From Patescibacteria group bacterium (GTDB lineage Bacteria; Patescibacteriota; Patescibacteriia; Buchananbacterales; UBA6539): a DNA stretch of 64,000 nucleotides. Positions 34,793 through 56,204 of this stretch are shown here, one piece after another (position 1 is the stretch's first letter; each line of letters opens with the position of its first letter). A program made the translations under genes and the position numbers. Below the pieces are notes generated by a model, which saw only the letters and a program-made list of their open reading frames with translations, was not told the origin of the DNA and made no database searches. The DNA lies in assembly GCA_034003985.1 (NCBI GenBank), contig JAVEXP010000002.1, positions 11,206 to 75,205 on the forward strand, in the 5' to 3' direction.

Positions 34793-34868
34793 GCCGAGAT
34801 AGCTCAGCTGGTAGAGCGCATCCATGGTAAGGATGAGGTCCCGGGTTCGATCCCCGGTCTCGGCTCCA
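34793..34868 (+). tRNA. tRNA-Thr (anticodon GGT)
   Basis: Manual fold: GCCGAGA acceptor, anticodon loop ATGGTAA, T-arm CCGGG-TTCGATC-CCCGG, CCA encoded. Confidence 0.85.
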
Positions 34869-34881
34869 GTAAAAAAATATT

Positions 34882-34967
34882 GGGTCGGTACCGAAGCGGT
34901 CAAACGGGGCTGACTGTAAATCAGCTGGCTTATGCCTTCGGCGGTTCGAATCCGTCCCGGCCCACCA
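34882..34967 (+). tRNA. tRNA-Tyr (anticodon GTA, long variable arm)
   Basis: Manual fold: anticodon loop CTGTAAA, 14-nt variable arm, CCA encoded. Confidence 0.85.
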
Positions 34968-34972
34968 GGTTT

Positions 34973-35047
34973 GCCGGGGTAGCTCAACGGTAGAGCAGCA
35001 GTTTTGTAAACTGTTGGTTGGGGGTTCGATTCCTCTCCCCGGCTCCA
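34973..35047 (+). tRNA. tRNA-Thr (anticodon TGT)
   Basis: Manual fold: GCCGGGG acceptor, anticodon loop TTTGTAA, GGGGG-TTCGATT-CCTCT T-arm, CCA encoded. Confidence 0.8.
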
Positions 35048-35077
35048 GTAGGGTATTAATTCTAAAGCATTTGTCGT

Positions 35078-35233
35078 ATGTCACAAGACAACATGATTAA
35101 AATGGAGTGCACGGAATGCAAAAGAGTCAATTATTTTTCACGCAAGAATAAGAAAACTCTTAAAGACAGACTTGAGTTGAAAAAGTATTGTAAGCATTGC
35201 AAAAAGCACACCGCTCACAAAGAAACTAAATAG
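35078..35233 (+). CDS. rpmG: 50S ribosomal protein L33
   Basis: 51-aa [54 protein letters not shown], matching the L33 Zn-ribbon consensus. Below the ORF-track length cutoff. Confidence 0.8.
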
Positions 35234-35235
35234 AC

Positions 35236-35316
35236 CATGCAAATTGTCATTCTGGGCGCAGCGAAGAATCTCTTTGATTCTTCGGTCACTTCGTTCCCTC
35301 AGAATGACAATTTGGT
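35236..35316. repeat. palindromic element: 16-bp perfect inverted repeat CCAAATTGTCATTCTG / CAGAATGACAATTTGG enclosing GCGCAGCGAAGAATC; related to the 3001-3080 repeat
   Basis: Read directly. Lies between rpmG and tRNA-Trp. Confidence 0.7.
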
Positions 35317-35318
35317 AT

Positions 35319-35392
35319 GGGGGCGTAGTTCAACAGTAGAACGGCGGTCTCCAAAACCGCAGACGAGGGTGCAACACCTTCCGCCCCTGCCA
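35319..35392 (+). tRNA. tRNA-Trp (anticodon CCA)
   Basis: Manual fold: GGGGGCG/CGCCCCT acceptor, anticodon loop CTCCAAA, CCA encoded. The T-loop is atypical (TGCAACA). Confidence 0.7.
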
Positions 35393-41265: not shown

Positions 41266-44220
41266 ATGGCAAAAAAAATCATCTCTTTCATCTTAGTTGG
41301 GGCTTTTGTCCTATCTGCCTGTTTATTGACGACTGGTGGAGTAACGGCCGCCGCTAGTTATAACGGTAAGATCGTCAAAACCAGCGGTGTTTCCGGACTT
41401 TATTATGTTGCCTCTAACGGCAAACGCTATGTTTTTCCCAGTGAGCAGACTTTCAAGACTTGGTTTCCCGATTTTAATGATGTAGTCAGTATCAGTATGT
41501 CCGACCTGGGCCAGATTCCGTTAGTTGGTAATGTGCTTTACCGCCCTGGGGTGTTGCTTATTAAAATTCAGACTGATCCCAAGATTTATGCCGTTTCTAA
41601 TAATGGCGTTTTGCATTGGGTAACTACCGAGGCGATTGCTAAGGCGCTTTATGGCGATAATTGGAATTTATTGGTCGATGATGTGGCTGATTCATTCTTT
41701 GTCAATTATACGGTTGGTGATCCGATTGACAGCGTCGCTGATTATAATCCTGATACCGAAGTTCAAAATACCGGTAGCATTGATGCCAACCATGGCTTAT
41801 CAATTGCCAGTGCTCTTAAGGCCAGAACCGGCAAGTGTGTTATTTCCAACAAGAGCCGGGTTTGCCAGGTTGGTAACACCAATACCAATACCAACACTAA
41901 CACTACGGTTGGTGGTGATCCGTATATCACAGCGATGGCAGTAGCCAATGGTGGCCAGACGGGTTATATTGATGTTGGCGATACCATCATTGTTAATTTT
42001 AACGAATCAGTTGATCCAACTTCAATCAATAGCGGCCTAACCAAAGGCGGTTCAGTTAGTAATGTCACCGCTTCCCAGACCGGCGGTATTAAACTGGCTT
42101 CATCGGGCAAGGTGACGGTGACTAATATCGCCGAGTTTGATATGGGTTCGGTTGATTATTCGGAAACTTTCACTGTTAAATTGACGCTTGATTCCACCGG
42201 TAAGATTTTGACGATTACTTTGACTGGTGGTAGCGATGTGGAAATTACCGAAGAAGATTTTAGTGGCGCTCGCCAGATCGGCGGTACGGTTGAAGATGTC
42301 GATGGCAATGCCATGGACGACGATTCAAGCATTACCGATCCGACTGGCACCTTTGGCGGTTCCGAAAGCACCAATCCTTATATTGCTTCAATCGCGGTGG
42401 CTAATGGCGGGGAAGAAGGTTACATTGATGTTGGTGATACTATCACCGTTAATTTTAGCGAGGCGATTAATCCGACTTCAATTAACAACAATTTAGACGA
42501 AGGTGATTATGTTTCTAATGTTTCTTATCTTAATACCGGAGGTATTAGAGTTTCTTCGTCCGGCAAGGTTACAATTACCAATATCGCTTCTTTTGATATG
42601 GGTTCGGTTGATAATTCCGAAACTTTCACCGTCAAGTTGGATTTAAGTTCCAATGCCAAGACCTTAAAGATTGTTTTGACCAGCGGTAGTGATGTGGAAG
42701 TTGTTGAAGAAGATTTCAGTAATGCCAGCCAGACCGGTGGCACCATCAAAGACAAAGATGGTGAAACAATGATTAGTGATTCCAGTATCAGCGATCCAAC
42801 CGGCAGTTTTGGCGGCACTTACTACAATACTAACGGCAGTCCTTATATCACGGAAATTGAAGTCGCTGACGGCGGAGACGAAGGTTTTATTGATGTCGGT
42901 GACAGTATTGCTATTAGTTTTAATGAGGCAATTGATCCGGAATCAGTCAACGATGATTTGGAAAAGGGCGGTTATGTCACCAATGTTCTGTCTTCGGAAA
43001 CAGGGGGAGTTAGAGTTTCTTCTTCCGGGGAAGTAATTGTTAGTGACATTGCGGTTTTTGAAGCCGGCACTGTTGGCTATTCGGGAACTTTTGTTTCTAA
43101 ACTAGCCCTTGATTCCACCGGCAAAATTTTGACTATTACCTTGACTAGCGGCGGTGACATTGAAATTATTGAAGAAGATTTGGATAATGCCAGTCAGACC
43201 GGCGGAACGATTGAGGATGTTGATGGTAATAAAATGGCAAGCGATGCCAGTATTACCGATCCGACCGGCACTTTTGGCGGTGATTATGATGACGGCAGCG
43301 ATGGCAGCAGTAACCCGTATATTACGGCCATTGTCGTGGCCAATGGCGGTGACAGCGGTTATATTGATACGGGCGACAGTATTGCCATTACTTTCAACGA
43401 AGCAATTGAACCAGAGTCGATTAACGATGATTTGGAAGCGGGTAGTTATGTCACAGGTGTTTCTTATTCGGAAGTTGGTGGTATCAGAGTTTCTTCATCC
43501 GGCAAGGTTTCAATTAACGAGATTGCTTCTTTTGACATGGGCTCGGTTGACAATTCCGAAACTTTCACCGTCAAATTGGCCTTAAGTTCCAATGCCAAGG
43601 TTTTAACCATTACCTTGACCAGCGGTACGGATGTTGAAATTACCGATGAATACTTTAGTGATGCCGCTCAGACTGGCGGTACCGTCCGCGATACTGATGA
43701 TAATGAGATGGCCAGTGATTCCAGTATTGATATTCCAGCCGGTACCTTTGGTGGGGATAATGACAGTGGGGATAATGACAGCTATCCTTATATTACCAAA
43801 GTGGCGGTTGCCAATGGCGGTGATAGCGGTTACATTGATGCCGGTGATACTATTGCCATTACTTTCAGTGAAAAAATTGATCCCGAGTCAATTAATGCCA
43901 ATTTAGATCAGGGCAGTTATATTAACGGAGTAGCCTATACTTTGGCTGGTGGAGTTAGTATTTTTGCCGCCGGCGCGGTGGTAATTGAAAAAATCGCGGT
44001 GTTTGATGCCGGGACCGTAGCCAGCGCCGGAACATTTACCGTCAAATTGGCTTTAGATTCAACCGGTAAGATTTTGACAGTCACTTTGACTAATGGTAGT
44101 GATATTCGGGTTACTGATCAAAGTTTTGGCACTACTACCCAAACTGGCGGAACGGTTAAGGACGGCGCCGGTAATGCCATGAGGAATTCCAGCCTCAGTC
44201 GTCCTTCCGGAAGCTTCTAG
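41266..44220 (+). CDS. large secreted/surface protein with N-terminal signal-anchor, NTNTNTNT linker and 5-6 tandem repeats of about 155 aa
   Basis: 984 aa. The repeat consensus is PYIT...VANGG..GYIDVGD.I...F.E.IDP.SIN..L..G.YV..V......GG.RVSSSGKV.......FDMGSVDNSETFTVKL.L.S...L.ITLT.G.D.E...E.F..A.QTGGT..D.DGN.M..D.SI.DPTG.FGG. Confidence 0.7.
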   Translation: MAKKIISFILVGAFVLSACLLTTGGVTAAASYNGKIVKTSGVSGLYYVASNGKRYVFPSEQTFKTWFPDFNDVVSISMSDLGQIPLVGNVLYRPGVLLIKIQTDPKIYAVSNNGVLHWVTTEAIAKALYGDNWNLLVDDVADSFFVNYTVGDPIDSVADYNPDTEVQNTGSIDANHGLSIASALKARTGKCVISNKSRVCQVGNTNTNTNTNTTVGGDPYITAMAVANGGQTGYIDVGDTIIVNFNESVDPTSINSGLTKGGSVSNVTASQTGGIKLASSGKVTVTNIAEFDMGSVDYSETFTVKLTLDSTGKILTITLTGGSDVEITEEDFSGARQIGGTVEDVDGNAMDDDSSITDPTGTFGGSESTNPYIASIAVANGGEEGYIDVGDTITVNFSEAINPTSINNNLDEGDYVSNVSYLNTGGIRVSSSGKVTITNIASFDMGSVDNSETFTVKLDLSSNAKTLKIVLTSGSDVEVVEEDFSNASQTGGTIKDKDGETMISDSSISDPTGSFGGTYYNTNGSPYITEIEVADGGDEGFIDVGDSIAISFNEAIDPESVNDDLEKGGYVTNVLSSETGGVRVSSSGEVIVSDIAVFEAGTVGYSGTFVSKLALDSTGKILTITLTSGGDIEIIEEDLDNASQTGGTIEDVDGNKMASDASITDPTGTFGGDYDDGSDGSSNPYITAIVVANGGDSGYIDTGDSIAITFNEAIEPESINDDLEAGSYVTGVSYSEVGGIRVSSSGKVSINEIASFDMGSVDNSETFTVKLALSSNAKVLTITLTSGTDVEITDEYFSDAAQTGGTVRDTDDNEMASDSSIDIPAGTFGGDNDSGDNDSYPYITKVAVANGGDSGYIDAGDTIAITFSEKIDPESINANLDQGSYINGVAYTLAGGVSIFAAGAVVIEKIAVFDAGTVASAGTFTVKLALDSTGKILTVTLTNGSDIRVTDQSFGTTTQTGGTVKDGAGNAMRNSSLSRPSGSF
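41915..44220. repeat. diverged tandem DNA repeats (period about 450-475 bp, 5 copies) inside the 984-aa surface protein gene
   Basis: Repeat starts found at about 41921, 42373, 42838, 43313 and 43785 by aligning the PYIT...GYIDVGD segments. Confidence 0.7.
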
Positions 44221-49615: not shown

Positions 49616-49668
49616 TTGACATTAATGTTAGAATAATATAACATTGAATTGTTAATTAATTCTAACAT
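49616..49668 (+). promoter_or_regulatory. TTGACA -35 box followed by 10-bp perfect inverted repeat ATGTTAGAAT...ATTCTAACAT; candidate promoter plus operator (XRE autoregulation)
   Basis: Read directly, immediately upstream of the membrane-protein/XRE gene pair. Confidence 0.35.
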
Positions 49669-49675
49669 TAAATTT

Positions 49676-50221
49676 ATGACCCCCAAACAGTATCAAATCG
49701 TTAAATTAATATTTGTTTTTATTCTAGCTGTAATTTTTAGTCAGGGGATTGTTTTTAGTAATTATCTTATTCCGATTGCCTCATTGGTGCTGAGCTCGTT
49801 GATTTTGCTTTATTTGCGCCGCAAAGTATCTGGGATTATGGCTGACGAACGCGATTATTCAGCCGCTGGTAAGTCCGCACTTTGGGCAATCCAAATATAT
49901 TCTTGGTTGGCCGTTGTCAGCATGCTTTTGCTTTATGCCGCCCGCGATTTCAATCCGGCCTATGAACCAATTGCCATGACTTTGGCTTTTTCAACCTGTA
50001 TTTTAATGCTGTTATACGCTTTGATTTTTCGTTACCAATGCCGAATAAAATTTACCGATAAAAAATTAATTTATACTATTTTGGTCCTGATATTTTTTGT
50101 CATTATGGCAATTGCGGCTCTCAGGTTATTTTCCGGCGAGGATAATTGGCTTTGTGTCAACGGCCAGTGGGTTAAACATGGTCAGCCGGATTTTCCCGCG
50201 CCAAGCATTGAGTGTAAATAA
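49676..50221 (+). CDS. hypothetical 4-TM membrane protein (partner of XRE regulator)
   Basis: Start taken at the ATG at 49676 (the ORF track uses a TTG at 49649). C-terminal Cys-containing soluble tail. Confidence 0.45.
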
Positions 50222-50229
50222 TATTCTTT

Positions 50230-50424
50230 ATGCATAATTTGATCAAAGATCGGCGAATAAAATTGAATATCACTCAAGAGGATTTGGCGCGCCAGGCCAG
50301 AGTCAGGCGGGAGACTATCGTTTTTTTAGAGCAGGGGAAATATAACCCGTCGCTCAAGTTGGCTCACGATGTCGCCAAAGCTTTAAAAACCACCATTGAC
50401 AAACTTTTTATTTTTGATGATTAA
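50230..50424 (+). CDS. XRE-family helix-turn-helix transcriptional regulator
   Basis: 64 aa. The [41 protein letters not shown] segment is a Cro/C1-type HTH. Confidence 0.75.
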
Positions 50425-50448
50425 TTTGGATTAACCTAATATTTTTTG

Positions 50449-50487
50449 TATAATAGAGATGTCGCTAACGCTACATCTCTATTATTA
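50449..50487 (+). promoter_or_regulatory. 13-bp inverted repeat TAATAGAGATGT-(9)-ACATCTCTATTA; terminator of XRE gene and/or operator upstream of cbiM-like gene
   Basis: Read directly. A TGTATAAT -10-like box overlaps the first arm. Confidence 0.35.
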
Positions 50488-50499
50488 AATTATTGGTTT

Positions 50500-51201
50500 A
50501 TGCACATTCCTGATGGTTTTCTTAATAACTCGACGGCCGGGTTGCTTTTGGGGGTCACCGTCTTGGCTGAGATCTGTGCCGGCGCCAAGGTTCGTAAAGA
50601 TTTTTTTGAAAAAATTAAAGTACCCGTTCTGAAAACAGTTGAGGGATTTGAATTTGGTTCTCCATCTGTCAGGCAACTGACTAAATCGGGAAAAGATAAA
50701 ATTTTTAAAATGGCCACGGTTGGGGCGTTTATCTTCGCCGCCCAGATGGTCAATTTTCCGGTGGCTTCCGGCACCAGCGGCCATTTGCTTGGCGGTGTAT
50801 TAGCCGGTATCCTGCTTGGTCCGCTGGAAGGACTTTTAGTGATTTCTTCAGTTTTAACAGTCCAGTCGTTATTTTTCGCCGATGGTGGTTTGCTCGCCTT
50901 AGGGGCCAATATTTTTAATATGGGTATTATCGGGGCAATCGGCGGCTACTATCTTTATTTATTATTTAGTAGCTTCCAAAAAAATTTTTTTATTTCGGCG
51001 GCTTTGGCTGCTTGGTCTAGCGTGATTTTGGCTTCGATAGTCTGTTCCTTGGAATTGGCAATTTCTGGCACCATTCCTTTGGTTTCAGTTTTGCCATCAA
51101 TGGTCGGAATTCATGCCTTAATTGGTATTGGCGAAGCACTAATCACCGTTTTCGTGTTGTGGTTTATGAAATATCAGCCGGAGGGGCACAGTCATGACTA
51201 A
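50500..51201 (+). CDS. ECF-type Co/Ni transporter substrate component CbiM/NikM family
   Basis: N-terminus MHIPDGFL is the CbiM/NikM hallmark, followed by about 6 TM. Start taken at the ATG at 50500. Confidence 0.65.
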   Translation: MHIPDGFLNNSTAGLLLGVTVLAEICAGAKVRKDFFEKIKVPVLKTVEGFEFGSPSVRQLTKSGKDKIFKMATVGAFIFAAQMVNFPVASGTSGHLLGGVLAGILLGPLEGLLVISSVLTVQSLFFADGGLLALGANIFNMGIIGAIGGYYLYLLFSSFQKNFFISAALAAWSSVILASIVCSLELAISGTIPLVSVLPSMVGIHALIGIGEALITVFVLWFMKYQPEGHSHD

Positions 51202-51499
51202 GCGCTATTTTGGGCTGTTGGTCCTAGCTTTGTTAGTCAGCGCTTTACTTTCCTTGTCGGCTTCTGCTAGTCCAGATGGCTTGGAGAAGGTTGCCATTGG
51301 CAAAGGATTCATCCAGACTGCCCTTGATTATCCTTTTGCGGTTTTAATACCTGATTACAGCCTTGGTCAAATTAATAATGAATTGCTTGCCGGGTCGTTA
51401 GCCGGACTTATTGGAACGGCCATTGTTTTTGTGGTAATTTATTTAATCATCAAATTTTTATTTTTTAGCCGCCCGCAGGCGAATAACCAAAAAATATGA
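51194..51499 (+). CDS. PDGLE-domain protein (CbiN/NikL-like accessory component)
   Basis: Signal peptide, literal SPDGLEKVA motif, C-terminal TM. Overlaps the cbiM-like stop by 8 nt. Confidence 0.6.
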   Translation: MTKRYFGLLVLALLVSALLSLSASASPDGLEKVAIGKGFIQTALDYPFAVLIPDYSLGQINNELLAGSLAGLIGTAIVFVVIYLIIKFLFFSRPQANNQKI

Positions 51500-53985
51500 T
51501 CAATCAAAAAGATTTTAATTCGTTGGAGCCTCAGGCTTCCGGCAAGAAGTCGCTTAATAAATTTATTTGGCTTGGTTTGGCGTTGGTTATTGTTTCGATC
51601 CTGGCATTGGGTTTTCTTGCTGCTTATTTTTTCTTTGGAAGCCAGCCCGGTAATCCACCTCAAACTACTGCCGAAGAACAGGGACTATTAGATTCTTGGA
51701 AATTTGTTTTAGTTCAGCCGGTCTTTGCCCAAAATGAAGAGGAATTTAATAATGTTGTTCCTGCTATTCCCTTGGCCAAACCCGAATTTGGTGAATTGAC
51801 CAATTTGGAAAGTTTTAAACAAGACAGCGGCATTGAATTTTCCGCTGCCCAGCAATCCGCTCTCAGTAGCGATGGTTTTTTCTTGGCGTCGAATAATATT
51901 ATTGGTAAAGAACCCAGTCTAAATGATTTTGTCGATTCTTACAACTATTTTAGCGGTAGTCGCAATGAATATTTTCGCCAAGCCGATGACGCGGTTTTTA
52001 TTACCAGCGATTTGGGGTTGCACCTTTATCATATTTTAATTGATCGTAGTTTTCAAAGTATTGAAGAAAAAAAATTCCAGCCAATGCTTCGAGCGATGAC
52101 CAAAGCGTTGTTTCTTGATTCTCTGGAAAAATACAATTTGGTTACCAACCTCGAGCTTAAGGATTCTTACAAGCGTTTGAGTGCTTATTATTTAGTTCCC
52201 TTGGTGGTTCTGGATGCCGGCAACAAAGCATCCGGTGTTGAGCTTGAGCCTTCGGATTTTGAAACTTATGCCCAATATCTTCAAGCAATGGACGAGCAGA
52301 CCGTTAAAAATAGTGCGGCGGAATTAGTTTTTGGTTTGGTTGATAAAACTTATGACGGTCAGATTTTACCCGATGAAATTTATGACCTCGCCCGGCAGGA
52401 ATTGTTATTAATTGCTTCAGCCGAGGAGATTGCCGATTCGCCGTTATTCACCCCTTGGCGTCCAGAGTTTCAAAATGATTATACTCAATTCAAGCCACGA
52501 TCACATTATACCAAAAATGATATTCTTAAAAGCTATTTTATCGCGATGATGTGGTATGGTCGAATGGGTTTTCCGTTGACCAGTCCGGAACTGACTCGTG
52601 ATGCTTTGCTAATAACTGCTCAAGTTAACAACTTGAAAGTTAGCGATCAGGATTTGTCCAAGTTGTGGTCTGATTTTGCGGCGGTTATCAATTTTTTTGT
52701 CGGCGAAGTTGATGATTTAACGCCTTACCAATATACTGATGTAATCAAAAAAGTTTATGGTTCAACCACCAGCCCGGCTGATTTCGCCGATAGCCAAAAA
52801 CTTAATGACTTTATCGCTCAGGCCAAAGCCGATTTGCCAGCTCCAAAAATTATTTCTGAAGCTCTGTGGGTATTTGATGACGGGGGACAGCGTGATGAAT
52901 TATTGAATGATTTAAAGCAATTCCGATTTATGGGGCAGCGGTTTACGCCTGATGCCTATATTATCAATAATTTGACTCAGGGTGCTGGCGCTCCCGAGCC
53001 GGAAACCGGTCAAATGTTGCCAAGTATGCCAACGGCTTTGATGCCAATCCATATTTTACAGCCCCAGAATCGTCTAGTTGAAAAATATCTGGATGACTGG
53101 GTTAATGATCCTGAGCGAATTGTTCAACAAGACCGCCAGTCCGACAAAATTATTGCCAAAGTGCTTAATCGTTTGCAAGCTGAGTTTGCCACTTATGACA
53201 ATAATACTTGGCTGAAGAATATTTATTGGCGCTGGCTTAACTTATTTCGGCCGTTGTTGGGAGTTTATGGTGAAGGTTATCCTTATTTTATGCAGACCCA
53301 GGCTTGGCAGCAGAAAAATCTCGGTACTGTCCTGGGGTCTTTTACTGAACTTAAGCATGATACCTTACTTTATGCCAAGCAGTCGTATGCCGAGCTTGGT
53401 GCCGGAATGCCCGAAGATCTTGAATTACCTCCGGTAGTCAAAGGTTATGTCGAACCAGATTTGGTATTTTGGAATCGTTTAATCAGTTTGGCTCAAACCA
53501 CCAAGACCGGTTTGGATTTACGCGACGCCATGCCAGAAGATTACAAAGATAAGTATGACACTTTTATTGACGCCATTGAATTTTTGCGAGATATCGCCAA
53601 GCAGGAACTCTTGGATCAAAAAATCAGTGATGAAGATTTCGAAAAGCTGCGGACCATTAGTTTTGTTCTAAGGCAAGTTGCCGAACCTCTTCCCGGACAG
53701 GAATTAACTACCAGAGAAAAGCGCGCTGGAATTATTGCCGATATTCATACCGATGCGCTCAAGGGGCAGATTCTTTACGAGGCTACTGGCAAACCATATA
53801 TTATCTATGTTGCCGTTAAAGATATTAATGGAACCCGTTTGACGCGCGGTGTGGTTTTTAACCATTATGAATTTGCCGACAAACTTGGTGAACGGTTGGC
53901 TGATGAAGATTGGCAGGCGAAAGTTTATGAGGGTGCAAGCTCATTGCCGCCTGCTGACATCTGGTCGGCCGAACTGATTAAATAG
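51496..53985 (+). CDS. large N-terminally anchored extracytoplasmic protein, unknown function (829 aa)
   Basis: A single TM near the N-terminus, then a long soluble domain. Start overlaps the previous stop (ATGA), so translationally coupled. Confidence 0.5.
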   Translation: MINQKDFNSLEPQASGKKSLNKFIWLGLALVIVSILALGFLAAYFFFGSQPGNPPQTTAEEQGLLDSWKFVLVQPVFAQNEEEFNNVVPAIPLAKPEFGELTNLESFKQDSGIEFSAAQQSALSSDGFFLASNNIIGKEPSLNDFVDSYNYFSGSRNEYFRQADDAVFITSDLGLHLYHILIDRSFQSIEEKKFQPMLRAMTKALFLDSLEKYNLVTNLELKDSYKRLSAYYLVPLVVLDAGNKASGVELEPSDFETYAQYLQAMDEQTVKNSAAELVFGLVDKTYDGQILPDEIYDLARQELLLIASAEEIADSPLFTPWRPEFQNDYTQFKPRSHYTKNDILKSYFIAMMWYGRMGFPLTSPELTRDALLITAQVNNLKVSDQDLSKLWSDFAAVINFFVGEVDDLTPYQYTDVIKKVYGSTTSPADFADSQKLNDFIAQAKADLPAPKIISEALWVFDDGGQRDELLNDLKQFRFMGQRFTPDAYIINNLTQGAGAPEPETGQMLPSMPTALMPIHILQPQNRLVEKYLDDWVNDPERIVQQDRQSDKIIAKVLNRLQAEFATYDNNTWLKNIYWRWLNLFRPLLGVYGEGYPYFMQTQAWQQKNLGTVLGSFTELKHDTLLYAKQSYAELGAGMPEDLELPPVVKGYVEPDLVFWNRLISLAQTTKTGLDLRDAMPEDYKDKYDTFIDAIEFLRDIAKQELLDQKISDEDFEKLRTISFVLRQVAEPLPGQELTTREKRAGIIADIHTDALKGQILYEATGKPYIIYVAVKDINGTRLTRGVVFNHYEFADKLGERLADEDWQAKVYEGASSLPPADIWSAELIK

Positions 53986-53986
53986 C

Positions 53987-55765
53987 ATGGATCGAGAAGA
54001 AAAATTACTTCTATTAGTCATTGTCGCAAGCCTATCTTTGATAGGCTTGCTGGCGCTTGGGGTTTGTTTGTTTAATGTCAGTCATCGGCCAGCACCAATT
54101 GTCGATTACTTTGAACTGCCAGCGAGGGATTTCCATTATGCCAACCCGGCCGATTTGAAATTTTATCAGCAACTTTATAATTTTCCCGGACAAGATTTTG
54201 ATTTGGCCGGCAGTCAGGTTTTTGGCGGGGTAATCCCGCATCATTTGTTGGCCGGGGATTTAATCGCTGATTTTTTTCGTCAGCTTGAAGGTCAGGATTT
54301 TGATTTAATTGTTTTATTGGGCCCCAATCATTTTTCGGCCGGGCAATCCGACTTGATTGCCTCGGCTTATGATTGGCAAACTCCTTATGGTATTTTATCA
54401 CCTGACCAAGCGGCATTAAATCAACTGAAAGACGAGCTAAACTTAGCTGTTGAAGAAAAGCCTTTTGCCGCCGAACATTCCATTAATGTCGAAGTGGCTT
54501 TTATCAAGAAGACTTTTCGTCATGCCAAGTTTTTGCCAATTATCATCAAGCCGGGAGTTGATCAAACTACCGCTGGTGAATTAGCCGAGGCCTTATTCAA
54601 GATTTCTCAATCAAAAAAAATGTTGTTGCTGGTTAGTGCTGATTTTTCTCATTATCAAACAAGTGATCAGGCACAGCTGGACGACCAAGCCTCAATTAAA
54701 GCCCTGACTAATTTTGATTTGGAAAAAATTTATAGCCTGGCCGTTGATTCGCCGCCGGCGGTTTATGCTTTATTGAAGTACGGTCAGCTTTATCACGCCA
54801 GTTTTCAACTATTGAATAATTCAAATTCTGCAATTTTATCTAACCAGCCGGATTTACCAAGTACCACCAGCTACATCACCGGTTTTTTGACTAACCAAGT
54901 GCCACCGGTTTCCCTAAAAATGTTATTTTTTGGCGATTTGATGTTGGATCGCCATGTTAAAGAGTTGATTAATTCTAAGGGATTTGATTATATTTTTTCC
55001 GATTTAAACCGGAATAATTTTTTTATGGGGTATGATTTAGTCGGTGCCAATTTAGAGGGAGTGGTAACTGATGGCGGTCAGCATTATGATCCCGTCAAAG
55101 AGTTTGATTTTGCTTTTGACCCAAAAGATGTCGCCGCACTTAAAAAATATCATTTTACTTTTTTTAATCTGGCCAACAATCATATTTTTGATCAAGGCCA
55201 GCGGGGGATCGATGAGACTAATTCCAATCTGACCGCTTTGGGATTTGATTACGCCGGTTGCCCCGACGGCCAAGTGGCTGATTGCAGCTGGCGGATTTTG
55301 ACATTAGACAACCAGCAAATCGCTTTGGTCGGTTTTAGCGGCGTTGGCGCAAAACTTAATCCCAATCTGGTAGCTAAAATGATTATCGATCTTCGTTTCC
55401 AAGTCGATTGGATTATTATTAACATTCATTGGGGTCAGGAGTATCAACTTCAGCCCAATGAAATGCAGCGTCACTTAGCCCATCAACTGATTGAATCCGG
55501 CGCTGATGTTGTCATCGGTCATCACCCCCATGTTGTTCAAGGTTTAGAAGTTTATCAAGGCAAACCAATTTTTTATTCTTTGGGAAATTTTGTTTTTGAT
55601 CAATACTTTTCCCAAGACACTCAAACCGGTTTGGCTTTGAGTCTGAATTTTTTAAATACGGAAGTGAATTATGAGCTTTGGCCTTTGGTGGCCACCAAAG
55701 GCCAGTTGAAGCTTTTAATTGGTAATGAGCGTCAAGACTTTTTGGCCAAGCTCGAGATTGATTAG
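53987..55765 (+). CDS. fusion protein: Memo-like (AmmeMemoRadiSam system protein B family) domain + CapA/PGA_cap metallophosphatase-like domain, N-terminal TM anchor
   Basis: The Memo-like half has GGVIPHHLLAG, LLGPNHF and LLLVSADFSHYQ, which parallel the MEMO1 motifs IAPHAGYxYCG, ILGPSHH and VVSSDFCHWG. The CapA-like half has MLFFGDLMLDRH and NLANNHIFDQGQRG. Confidence 0.6.
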   Translation: MDREEKLLLLVIVASLSLIGLLALGVCLFNVSHRPAPIVDYFELPARDFHYANPADLKFYQQLYNFPGQDFDLAGSQVFGGVIPHHLLAGDLIADFFRQLEGQDFDLIVLLGPNHFSAGQSDLIASAYDWQTPYGILSPDQAALNQLKDELNLAVEEKPFAAEHSINVEVAFIKKTFRHAKFLPIIIKPGVDQTTAGELAEALFKISQSKKMLLLVSADFSHYQTSDQAQLDDQASIKALTNFDLEKIYSLAVDSPPAVYALLKYGQLYHASFQLLNNSNSAILSNQPDLPSTTSYITGFLTNQVPPVSLKMLFFGDLMLDRHVKELINSKGFDYIFSDLNRNNFFMGYDLVGANLEGVVTDGGQHYDPVKEFDFAFDPKDVAALKKYHFTFFNLANNHIFDQGQRGIDETNSNLTALGFDYAGCPDGQVADCSWRILTLDNQQIALVGFSGVGAKLNPNLVAKMIIDLRFQVDWIIINIHWGQEYQLQPNEMQRHLAHQLIESGADVVIGHHPHVVQGLEVYQGKPIFYSLGNFVFDQYFSQDTQTGLALSLNFLNTEVNYELWPLVATKGQLKLLIGNERQDFLAKLEID

Positions 55766-55820
55766 ATTTAATTGGCCCTAATTGCTATAATATAATTGTT
55801 GGAACATAATATTGTAGCCG

Positions 55821-56204
55821 ATGAAAAAAATATTGTTAGCCATTTTGGCGGTCATGCTAGTCATTTTGCTTTTGTTAGTCGGGTTGATTTTTTACCTTTA
55901 TTTTGTTTTCCAGCCATTAATGAATGGTTTTCAGGTTGACACCAATTTTGATTCCGCCGAGTCAACGGATAGTCAAGCGACAGATTCTAACCCGGTTGAT
56001 AAGCATCCTTTATTGACTGACAGTCAGGAGCAAATGCTCGAAAAAATTGGTATTGATCCGGCCAAGCTTCCCCAAACCATTACGCCGGAACTGGAACAGT
56101 GTTTTATTGCCAAACTGGGTCAGGAACGGGTTGATCAGATTAAAAGTGGCCAGTCGCCAACTGCCGTTGATTTATTTAAAGCTAAATCATGTATTACCAA
56201 TTAA
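55821..56204 (+). CDS. small membrane-anchored hypothetical protein
   Basis: N-terminal TM segment, then an acidic soluble region. 127 aa. Confidence 0.4.
   Translation: MKKILLAILAVMLVILLLLVGLIFYLYFVFQPLMNGFQVDTNFDSAESTDSQATDSNPVDKHPLLTDSQEQMLEKIGIDPAKLPQTITPELEQCFIAKLGQERVDQIKSGQSPTAVDLFKAKSCITN

Follow-up and report, generated by a model that had tools for sequence, protein, structure and literature searches.

A CbiM-PDGLE pair and a DUF3160-Memo::CapA pair in one four-gene locus of a Patescibacteria genome

Gene layout and domains of the locus

Four tightly packed genes occupy positions 50500-55765 on the + strand of a DNA stretch from the metagenome-assembled genome of a Patescibacteria group bacterium (contig JAVEXP010000002.1), which was analysed at its full length of 64 kb and is referred to here as the window. 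The first two genes encode a 233-aa CbiM/NikM-type S component (50500..51201, +; Pfam CbiM, E 1.9e-52) and a 101-aa PDGLE protein, an N-type accessory component (51194..51499, +; Pfam PDGLE, E 2.7e-14), which together form module 1. Module 2 is composed of an 829-aa, N-terminally anchored DUF3160 protein (51496..53985, +; PF11369, E 4e-150) and a 592-aa Memo::PGA_cap fusion (53987..55765, +; Pfam Memo and PGA_cap). The fusion comprises a Memo-like domain (54134..54886, +; Pfam Memo, E 4e-28, aa 87-253) and a calcineurin-like CapA/PGA_cap domain (54911..55765, +; Pfam PGA_cap, E 6e-60, aa 312-539). Reading the sequence at the gene junctions, CbiM and PDGLE overlap by 8 nt (cATGacTAA, with a GGAGGGG Shine-Dalgarno sequence upstream), PDGLE and DUF3160 overlap by 4 nt (ATGA), and a gap of 1 nt separates DUF3160 from the fusion (TAGcATG). 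A single hydrophobic segment lies near the N-terminus in both large proteins (aa 23-41 of DUF3160, aa 8-26 of the fusion), and no twin-arginine motif was found in either.

A preliminary description of this DNA had proposed four + strand open reading frames (ORFs) in operon-like packing, N-terminal anchors on both large proteins, an MHIPDGFL-type CbiM/NikM protein with a PDGLE accessory partner, and a fusion of Memo to CapA/PGA_cap. The coordinates, the overlaps and the anchors agree with this layout, and Pfam profile searches uphold every domain call (CbiM, PDGLE, Memo and PGA_cap, including both halves of the fusion). The fusion also deserves its description as unusual and uncharacterised; no paper combining PGA_cap and Memo was found in the literature. 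The 829-aa protein had been listed as unknown, which needs amending: it belongs to a named Pfam family (DUF3160/PF11369), but that family is indeed uncharacterised.

The CbiM protein starts with MHIPDGFL, and its homologues of 231-234 aa likewise start with MH; the closest are Patescibacteria proteins of ~231 aa. Met1-His2, His95 of the GTSGH motif, Gln122 of the VQS motif and the His and Glu of GIHALIGIGE are all present, and these residues match the ligand set described for NikM2, including the His67-type ligand (PMC3945884). The Pfam match restarts only at residue 56 (profile position 26), and comparison with the model suggests that CbiM and its ~231-aa homologues in the candidate phyla radiation (CPR) carry an insert of ~25-30 residues after the first transmembrane segment (TM1). 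The PDGLE protein contains two hydrophobic segments and gives weak CbiN matches in NCBIfam.

No ATP-binding cassette (ABC) ATPase signature was found among ORFs of at least 100 aa in the window, and CbiO is therefore absent nearby. The preliminary description had seen neither CbiQ nor CbiO, which holds throughout the window and also in eight related CbiM loci (L086-L093; five distinct contexts). A complete energy-coupling factor (ECF) transporter locus is thus ruled out, since the T component and the ABC ATPase are not in the operon. In all eight related loci, CbiM is followed by an overlapping PDGLE gene, and the neighbours, where visible, are Zip, ZnuABC, Fur or VIT1 genes; CbiQ, CbiO, DUF3160 and the fusion were not found in any of them. 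A Memo gene near CbiM in L090 was considered as the same module and rejected: it is of the cytoplasmic LigB/Memo type, with an unrelated protein before it. M plus N is reported to be the minimal unit, with basal uptake even when Q and O are missing, and nikM2N2 has been described as an orphan pair (PMC3945884). CbiM with PDGLE is an ordinary arrangement, the orphan S-plus-N unit being its standard form in Patescibacteria, and the present pair adds to the evidence for orphan M+N Ni/Co units in this group.

Transcription and independence of the two modules

Upstream of CbiM, the sequence shows a promoter-like site (50426..50454, +; TTGGAT and TATAAT with 17 nt between them) from which the four-gene unit would be transcribed. 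Its -10 box is overlapped by a perfect palindrome with 12-bp arms (50451..50484, not assigned to a strand), a candidate operator or 5' hairpin. This palindrome is the only one in the window, against 0 expected by chance, and its predicted RNA fold has an energy of -18.7 kcal/mol (z -5.0). Neither the palindrome nor the sequence upstream of CbiM matched Rfam, and a riboswitch upstream of CbiM was dropped as a candidate on this ground. Upstream of the promoter lie a gene for a DUF2178 membrane protein (49649-50221) and a gene for a 64-aa XRE-type helix-turn-helix protein (HTH_3; 50230-50424). The palindrome is directly downstream of these two genes and is a candidate operator for the XRE regulator.

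Across 50500-55765, promoter-like sites on the + strand are only weak 9-of-12 matches and do not exceed shuffled sequences. The window has more copies of the extended -10 motif TGNTATAAT than expected (12 against 3.1), and none lies on the + strand in 50500-55765; the next one is at 55783, ahead of the following gene. Its + strand copies, those at 55783, 44303 and 35418 among them, often stand just 5' of genes. With one upstream promoter and no internal TGNTATAAT, the four genes are most likely expressed as one transcript.

The conservation of the quartet was surveyed in 85 genome loci and another 38 loci by tblastn with the five domains of the window. Homologues of the fusion fall into more than 100 clusters, nearly all from CPR, and the analysis covered ~25 distinct related loci with DUF3160. 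In every close one with downstream DNA, the gene directly after DUF3160 encodes a Memo protein that is anchored and, in most cases, fused to CapA. Neither CbiM nor PDGLE was found near any fusion or DUF3160 gene in the surveyed loci. Five of the six relatives inspected have their own TGCTATAAT element ~25-35 nt upstream of DUF3160. In one Patescibacteria locus (L125, 5001-9294), DUF3160 and Memo::CapA are located between rpsG and fusA, within the rpoB-rpoC-rpsL-rpsG-fusA-tuf cluster (str operon). This placement suggests constitutive, high expression of the pair.

The two modules are therefore independent. The independent loci, the separate promoters and the str-operon placement identify module 2 as a portable two-gene cassette, which was placed behind CbiM-PDGLE in the lineage of the window. 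An extended PDGLE C-terminus and the ATGA overlap of 4 nt indicate that the junction between PDGLE and DUF3160 is probably a real evolutionary junction and not a misassembly. The proposal that the four genes form one system is not supported by this survey, in which the quartet was not found in any related locus; the preliminary description itself had named such a lack of co-occurrence as the result that would count against it.

Module 2 itself varies in composition. Clustering of the neighbours of 30 fusion loci yields two recurrent partners, DUF3160 in 14 loci and a second family, termed A4, in 12. A4 proteins are N-terminally anchored, measure ~480-690 aa and share a conserved C-terminal region (CGKPVIYLYPE...YPYLFWEG...EWGG). 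They are the immediate neighbours of Memo::CapA in place of DUF3160 (L007 8030-9853, L020 7563-9347, L028 8259-9995 and 9 more). No match to A4 was found in Pfam, NCBIfam or the PDB, and the possibility that A4 is a divergent DUF3160 was rejected (hhalign probability 2%). CapA is not an obligatory part of the module: in L105, L108/L113, L111, L112 and L124, the gene after DUF3160 encodes an anchored protein of ~300 aa with a Memo domain only. Beyond the CPR loci proper, DUF3160 adjoins Memo::CapA in Caldisericum (L027), Atribacteria (L029) and Saccharibacteria (L058), and it adjoins a CapA-only protein in Paludibacter (Bacteroidota; L063) and in a metagenome-assembled genome of Bacillota (L081), both being lipoprotein-like there. 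An archaeal DUF3160 gene (L126, 5236-8130) has a divergently transcribed neighbour encoding a 226-aa Metallophos protein that is not PGA_cap, and the contig ends right after DUF3160.

A 127-aa anchored small protein (55821..56204, +), encoded behind the fusion with its own TGCTATAAT promoter at 55783-55791, is a possible accessory. Its C-terminal region, with two Cys residues, is conserved, and neither Pfam nor NCBIfam has a family for it. In L108/L113, the gene immediately upstream of DUF3160 encodes a homologue (38% identity, E 1e-22; L108 5226-5642); since the other loci lack it, the link to the DUF3160 pair is weak. The 271-275-aa proteins encoded ahead of DUF3160 in L001 and L094 were rejected as conserved partners, since only a leader region is common to both. 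Elsewhere in the window, 41266-44220 encodes a 984-aa secreted protein with some five Big_5-like tandem repeats of ~150 aa each, and a similar 996-aa Big_5 protein is encoded near the DUF3160 pair in L001. The window also contains five tRNA genes, four clustered at 34793-35389 and one at 2920-2993.

Active sites of the module 2 proteins

The predicted structure of the fusion (pLDDT 89.8, pTM 0.63) contains two well-defined domains with an uncertain relative orientation. Its Memo half carries the motifs PHH (84-86), GPNH (112-115) and SADFSH (217-222), which are invariant across 15 fusion homologues; the preliminary description had likened these motifs to MEMO1. A profile of Memo halves matches MEMO1 (E 5e-9) and aligns H85, H115, D219 and H222 with H49, H81, D189 and H192, and Foldseek superimposes the two folds (E 4e-14, TM 0.73). 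The fusion also matches TIGR04336 (AmmeMemoSam_B) with E 2.8e-33 and 115 bits (cut-off 26).

The CapA half has one sequence match in the PDB, the lasso-peptide epimerase MslH (8GQ9; phmmer E 1.4e-17), which is also its top Foldseek match (E 1.2e-18); a partial match of the fusion to MslH was found in NCBIfam as well. Seven residues of this half (D317, E357, N398, H399, D402, H481 and H515) are invariant in the 15 fusions. They include both His/Asp dyads of MslH (H88/D91 as H399/D402; H295/D11 as H515/D317) and three of its Ca ligands (E44, N87 and H259 as E357, N398 and H481), with residue roles taken from PMC10406935. Memo::CapA thus apparently carries two metal-dependent active sites, both intact as far as these alignments indicate.

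The PF11369 match of the DUF3160 protein extends over residues 117-815 and profile positions 2-625 of 632, which is near full length. The preliminary description had called for a structure prediction of this protein; the AlphaFold2 model is confident (pLDDT 83.7, pTM 0.82) and depicts a large, mostly helical protein. Neither a fold relative nor a sequence match was found in the PDB. Homologues are abundant, with 3,943 clusters at 50% identity (phmmer, E ≤ 1e-3, 1.84 billion representatives). In a 40-member family alignment, the near-invariant polar residues are D172, H179, E190, R335, H337, Y338, R477, Q481, R482, D486, H621, D622, Y626, K628, D749, E792, R800 and D803, a conservation pattern that would be expected of an enzyme. 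The literature search found the name DUF3160 in a single paper, where a table lists it as 'secreted enzyme'. Many DUF3160 and A4 proteins end in W-x3-[LIV]-x-[KR] (53960-53982 in the window), with varying spacing; this ending could be due to chance, or could represent a shared docking or substrate tail. It is too variable to be relied on as an MslH-like recognition motif and was set aside as such.

Interpretation and relation to known systems

On balance, we think that two independent modules, each of two genes, probably came to stand side by side under a single promoter in this lineage specifically, with the following functions. In module 1, metal would be bound through the Met1-His2 N-terminus of CbiM, and Ni/Co would enter the cytoplasm. 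This uptake would either run at the basal level demonstrated for M+N pairs or depend on an energising module from another part of the genome. Module 2 would be an outward-facing, membrane-anchored surface enzyme pair. Our best guess is that DUF3160 and Memo::CapA act together on a peptide-type envelope component or on scavenged peptides. The CapA domain may perform metal-assisted acid/base chemistry at C-alpha (epimerisation), as in MslH, or possibly hydrolysis. The adjacency of CbiM/N would provide co-expression only, with no metal delivery.

Several observations weigh against this interpretation. The four genes are translationally coupled in this genome, so that their co-expression is real and could have been selected. 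The Cys244 ligand of MEMO1 is not conserved in the Memo half; it falls opposite V253, beside the invariant D254-S255, in a pairwise alignment with a MEMO1 sequence that was checked against the PDB alignment only for residues 33-203. In the CapA half, the fourth Ca ligand of MslH (H261) aligns with Gly483, the fold also resembles phosphoesterases and 5'-nucleotidases in Foldseek, and the chemistry put forward for this domain is drawn from homology to MslH alone, to which it is ~18% identical over the fold. Outside CPR, the DUF3160 loci were found through CapA, which biases that part of the survey, and the unbiased distant DUF3160 locus L117 has neither Memo nor CapA within 4-6 kb on either side.

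A more far-reaching proposal is offered tentatively. In Patescibacteria and several anaerobic phyla, DUF3160 (or A4) and an anchored Memo protein, either with CapA or lacking it, might make up a widespread extracytoplasmic enzyme system that has so far gone unrecognised. It would chemically modify a peptide-type envelope component or its own partner, for example by introducing D-amino acids after export through an MslH-like epimerase. If true, this would provide the first functional context for prokaryotic Memo, for CapA outside poly-gamma-glutamate (PGA) synthesis and for DUF3160. Each of these three families is widespread and essentially without a known prokaryotic function. The pair is conserved and outward-facing across CPR and other phyla, and the DUF3160 model is confident and has no solved structural relative; the ectodomains of the pair therefore present a concrete experimental target.

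A phosphoesterase role of the CapA domain is a serious rival, although we consider it unlikely. The domain would then be a true metallophosphoesterase, for example a surface nucleotidase or phosphodiesterase with which an episymbiont scavenges nucleotides or lipid head groups, and DUF3160 and Memo would be accessory. Its calcineurin-like fold is consistent with such a role, as are Foldseek matches to YmdB-like phosphodiesterases and 5'-nucleotidases/CD73 (E 1e-9 to 1e-7), and CPR bacteria depend on scavenging. However, MslH is by far the best match in both sequence and fold, and PGA_cap has a single characterised member, an epimerase with one bound Ca ion instead of two metals. PGA_cap also lacks the canonical first DxH motif, and the fusion has GDLMLDR.

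It is less probable still that the large neighbour is the substrate, with Memo::CapA modifying DUF3160 or A4 after export, for example at the C-terminus. Two unrelated partner families at the same position beside the fusion would be accounted for in this way, as would the W-x3-[LIV]-x-[KR] end in many members of both, and MslH does act on a C-terminal Trp-containing tail. Nevertheless, the motif varies in spacing and end residue, and a P..W element lies within the DUF3160 domain even in distant members. The enzyme-like invariant His, Asp, Glu and Arg residues are retained across the DUF3160 family, and the lone DUF3160 gene of L117 is also difficult to reconcile with a substrate role.

That all four genes make up one system, in which a dedicated Ni/Co importer supplies an extracytoplasmic enzyme complex, was the proposal of the preliminary description and now appears very improbable. 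The overlaps of 8 nt and 4 nt, the 1-nt gap, the single upstream promoter and the origin of both enzyme domains of the fusion from metal-dependent families speak for it. It is largely refuted by the neighbourhood survey, with the quartet confined to the present locus among those examined and the DUF3160 pair of relatives expressed from its own promoter. The direction of transport is also at odds with it: CbiM/N imports into the cytoplasm, and the enzymes are anchored outside with no twin-arginine signal, so that their metal would be loaded outside and not drawn from CbiM/N import. The metals known in relatives, moreover, are Ca (MslH) and Fe/Cu (MEMO1), not Ni/Co.

The least credible assignment places the fusion in a PgsBCA/CapBCA-type capsule synthase or in an AmmeMemoRadiSam system, as the source names 'poly-gamma-glutamate synthesis protein' and 'AmmeMemoRadiSam system protein B' and the matches to both PGA_cap and TIGR04336 would have it; PgsB and PgsC, however, occur only beside Bacillaceae PgsA (L062, L074 and L082), and the fusion is anchored outside the cell, whereas the radical-SAM partners are cytoplasmic. 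A tblastn search with the PgsB and PgsC of L082 found neither protein in the CPR/fusion loci or in the window. A PGA synthase identity is consequently rejected, the PGA_cap domain being present and its PgsB/PgsC partners not, and the capsule or polymer processing envisaged in the preliminary description is not borne out in the PgsBCA sense. The same description had pointed to AMMECR1 and radical-SAM partners. No AMMECR1 was found in the annotated neighbourhoods of L001, L003, L094, L124 and L125 or among 12 flanking genes scanned in the window, and Radical_SAM genes appear in those neighbourhoods only in L094, several kb from the pair. An AmmeMemoRadiSam system is likewise rejected: a Memo-like protein B is present, but adjacent AMMECR1 and radical-SAM genes are not in the neighbourhoods scanned, and the protein is outside the cell. 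A literature search on this system yielded nothing functional. With PgsB/PgsC, AMMECR1 and a conserved radical-SAM partner all absent from the loci examined, neither capsule synthesis nor metal supply by the importer is supported, and the two public names are corrected here as misleading.

The juxtaposition of two modules that we favour can be compared with four known systems. Module 1 resembles CbiMNQO/NikMNQO, including the T. tengcongensis nikM2N2 pair, in its Met1-His2 S component, in the Thr/His, Gln, His and Glu positions, and in a small N-type partner with two transmembrane segments whose gene overlaps that of M. It differs from CbiMNQO in that CbiQ and CbiO are missing from the window and the eight related loci, in an N component of the PDGLE type instead of canonical CbiN, and in the suggested insert after TM1. 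The fusion shares an N-terminally anchored PGA_cap domain with the PgsA/CapA of PgsBCA, and one and the same query also brought up Bacillaceae PgsA loci (32-33% identity); in the present locus, the domain is partnered by Memo and DUF3160. CapA itself has been proposed as a PGA epimerase (PMC8179263). MslH, a C-terminal Trp epimerase of lasso peptides and a member of the PGA_cap family, is what the CapA half matches best in both sequence and fold; unlike MslH, the fusion is membrane-anchored, extracytoplasmic, joined to Memo and without a context of peptides that are made on the ribosome and modified after translation (RiPPs). The Memo half differs from MEMO1 and AmmeMemoRadiSam protein B of the LigB superfamily in its extracytoplasmic anchoring, its usual fusion to CapA and the replaced Cys244 ligand, and shares with them the fold and the His-His-Asp-His site.

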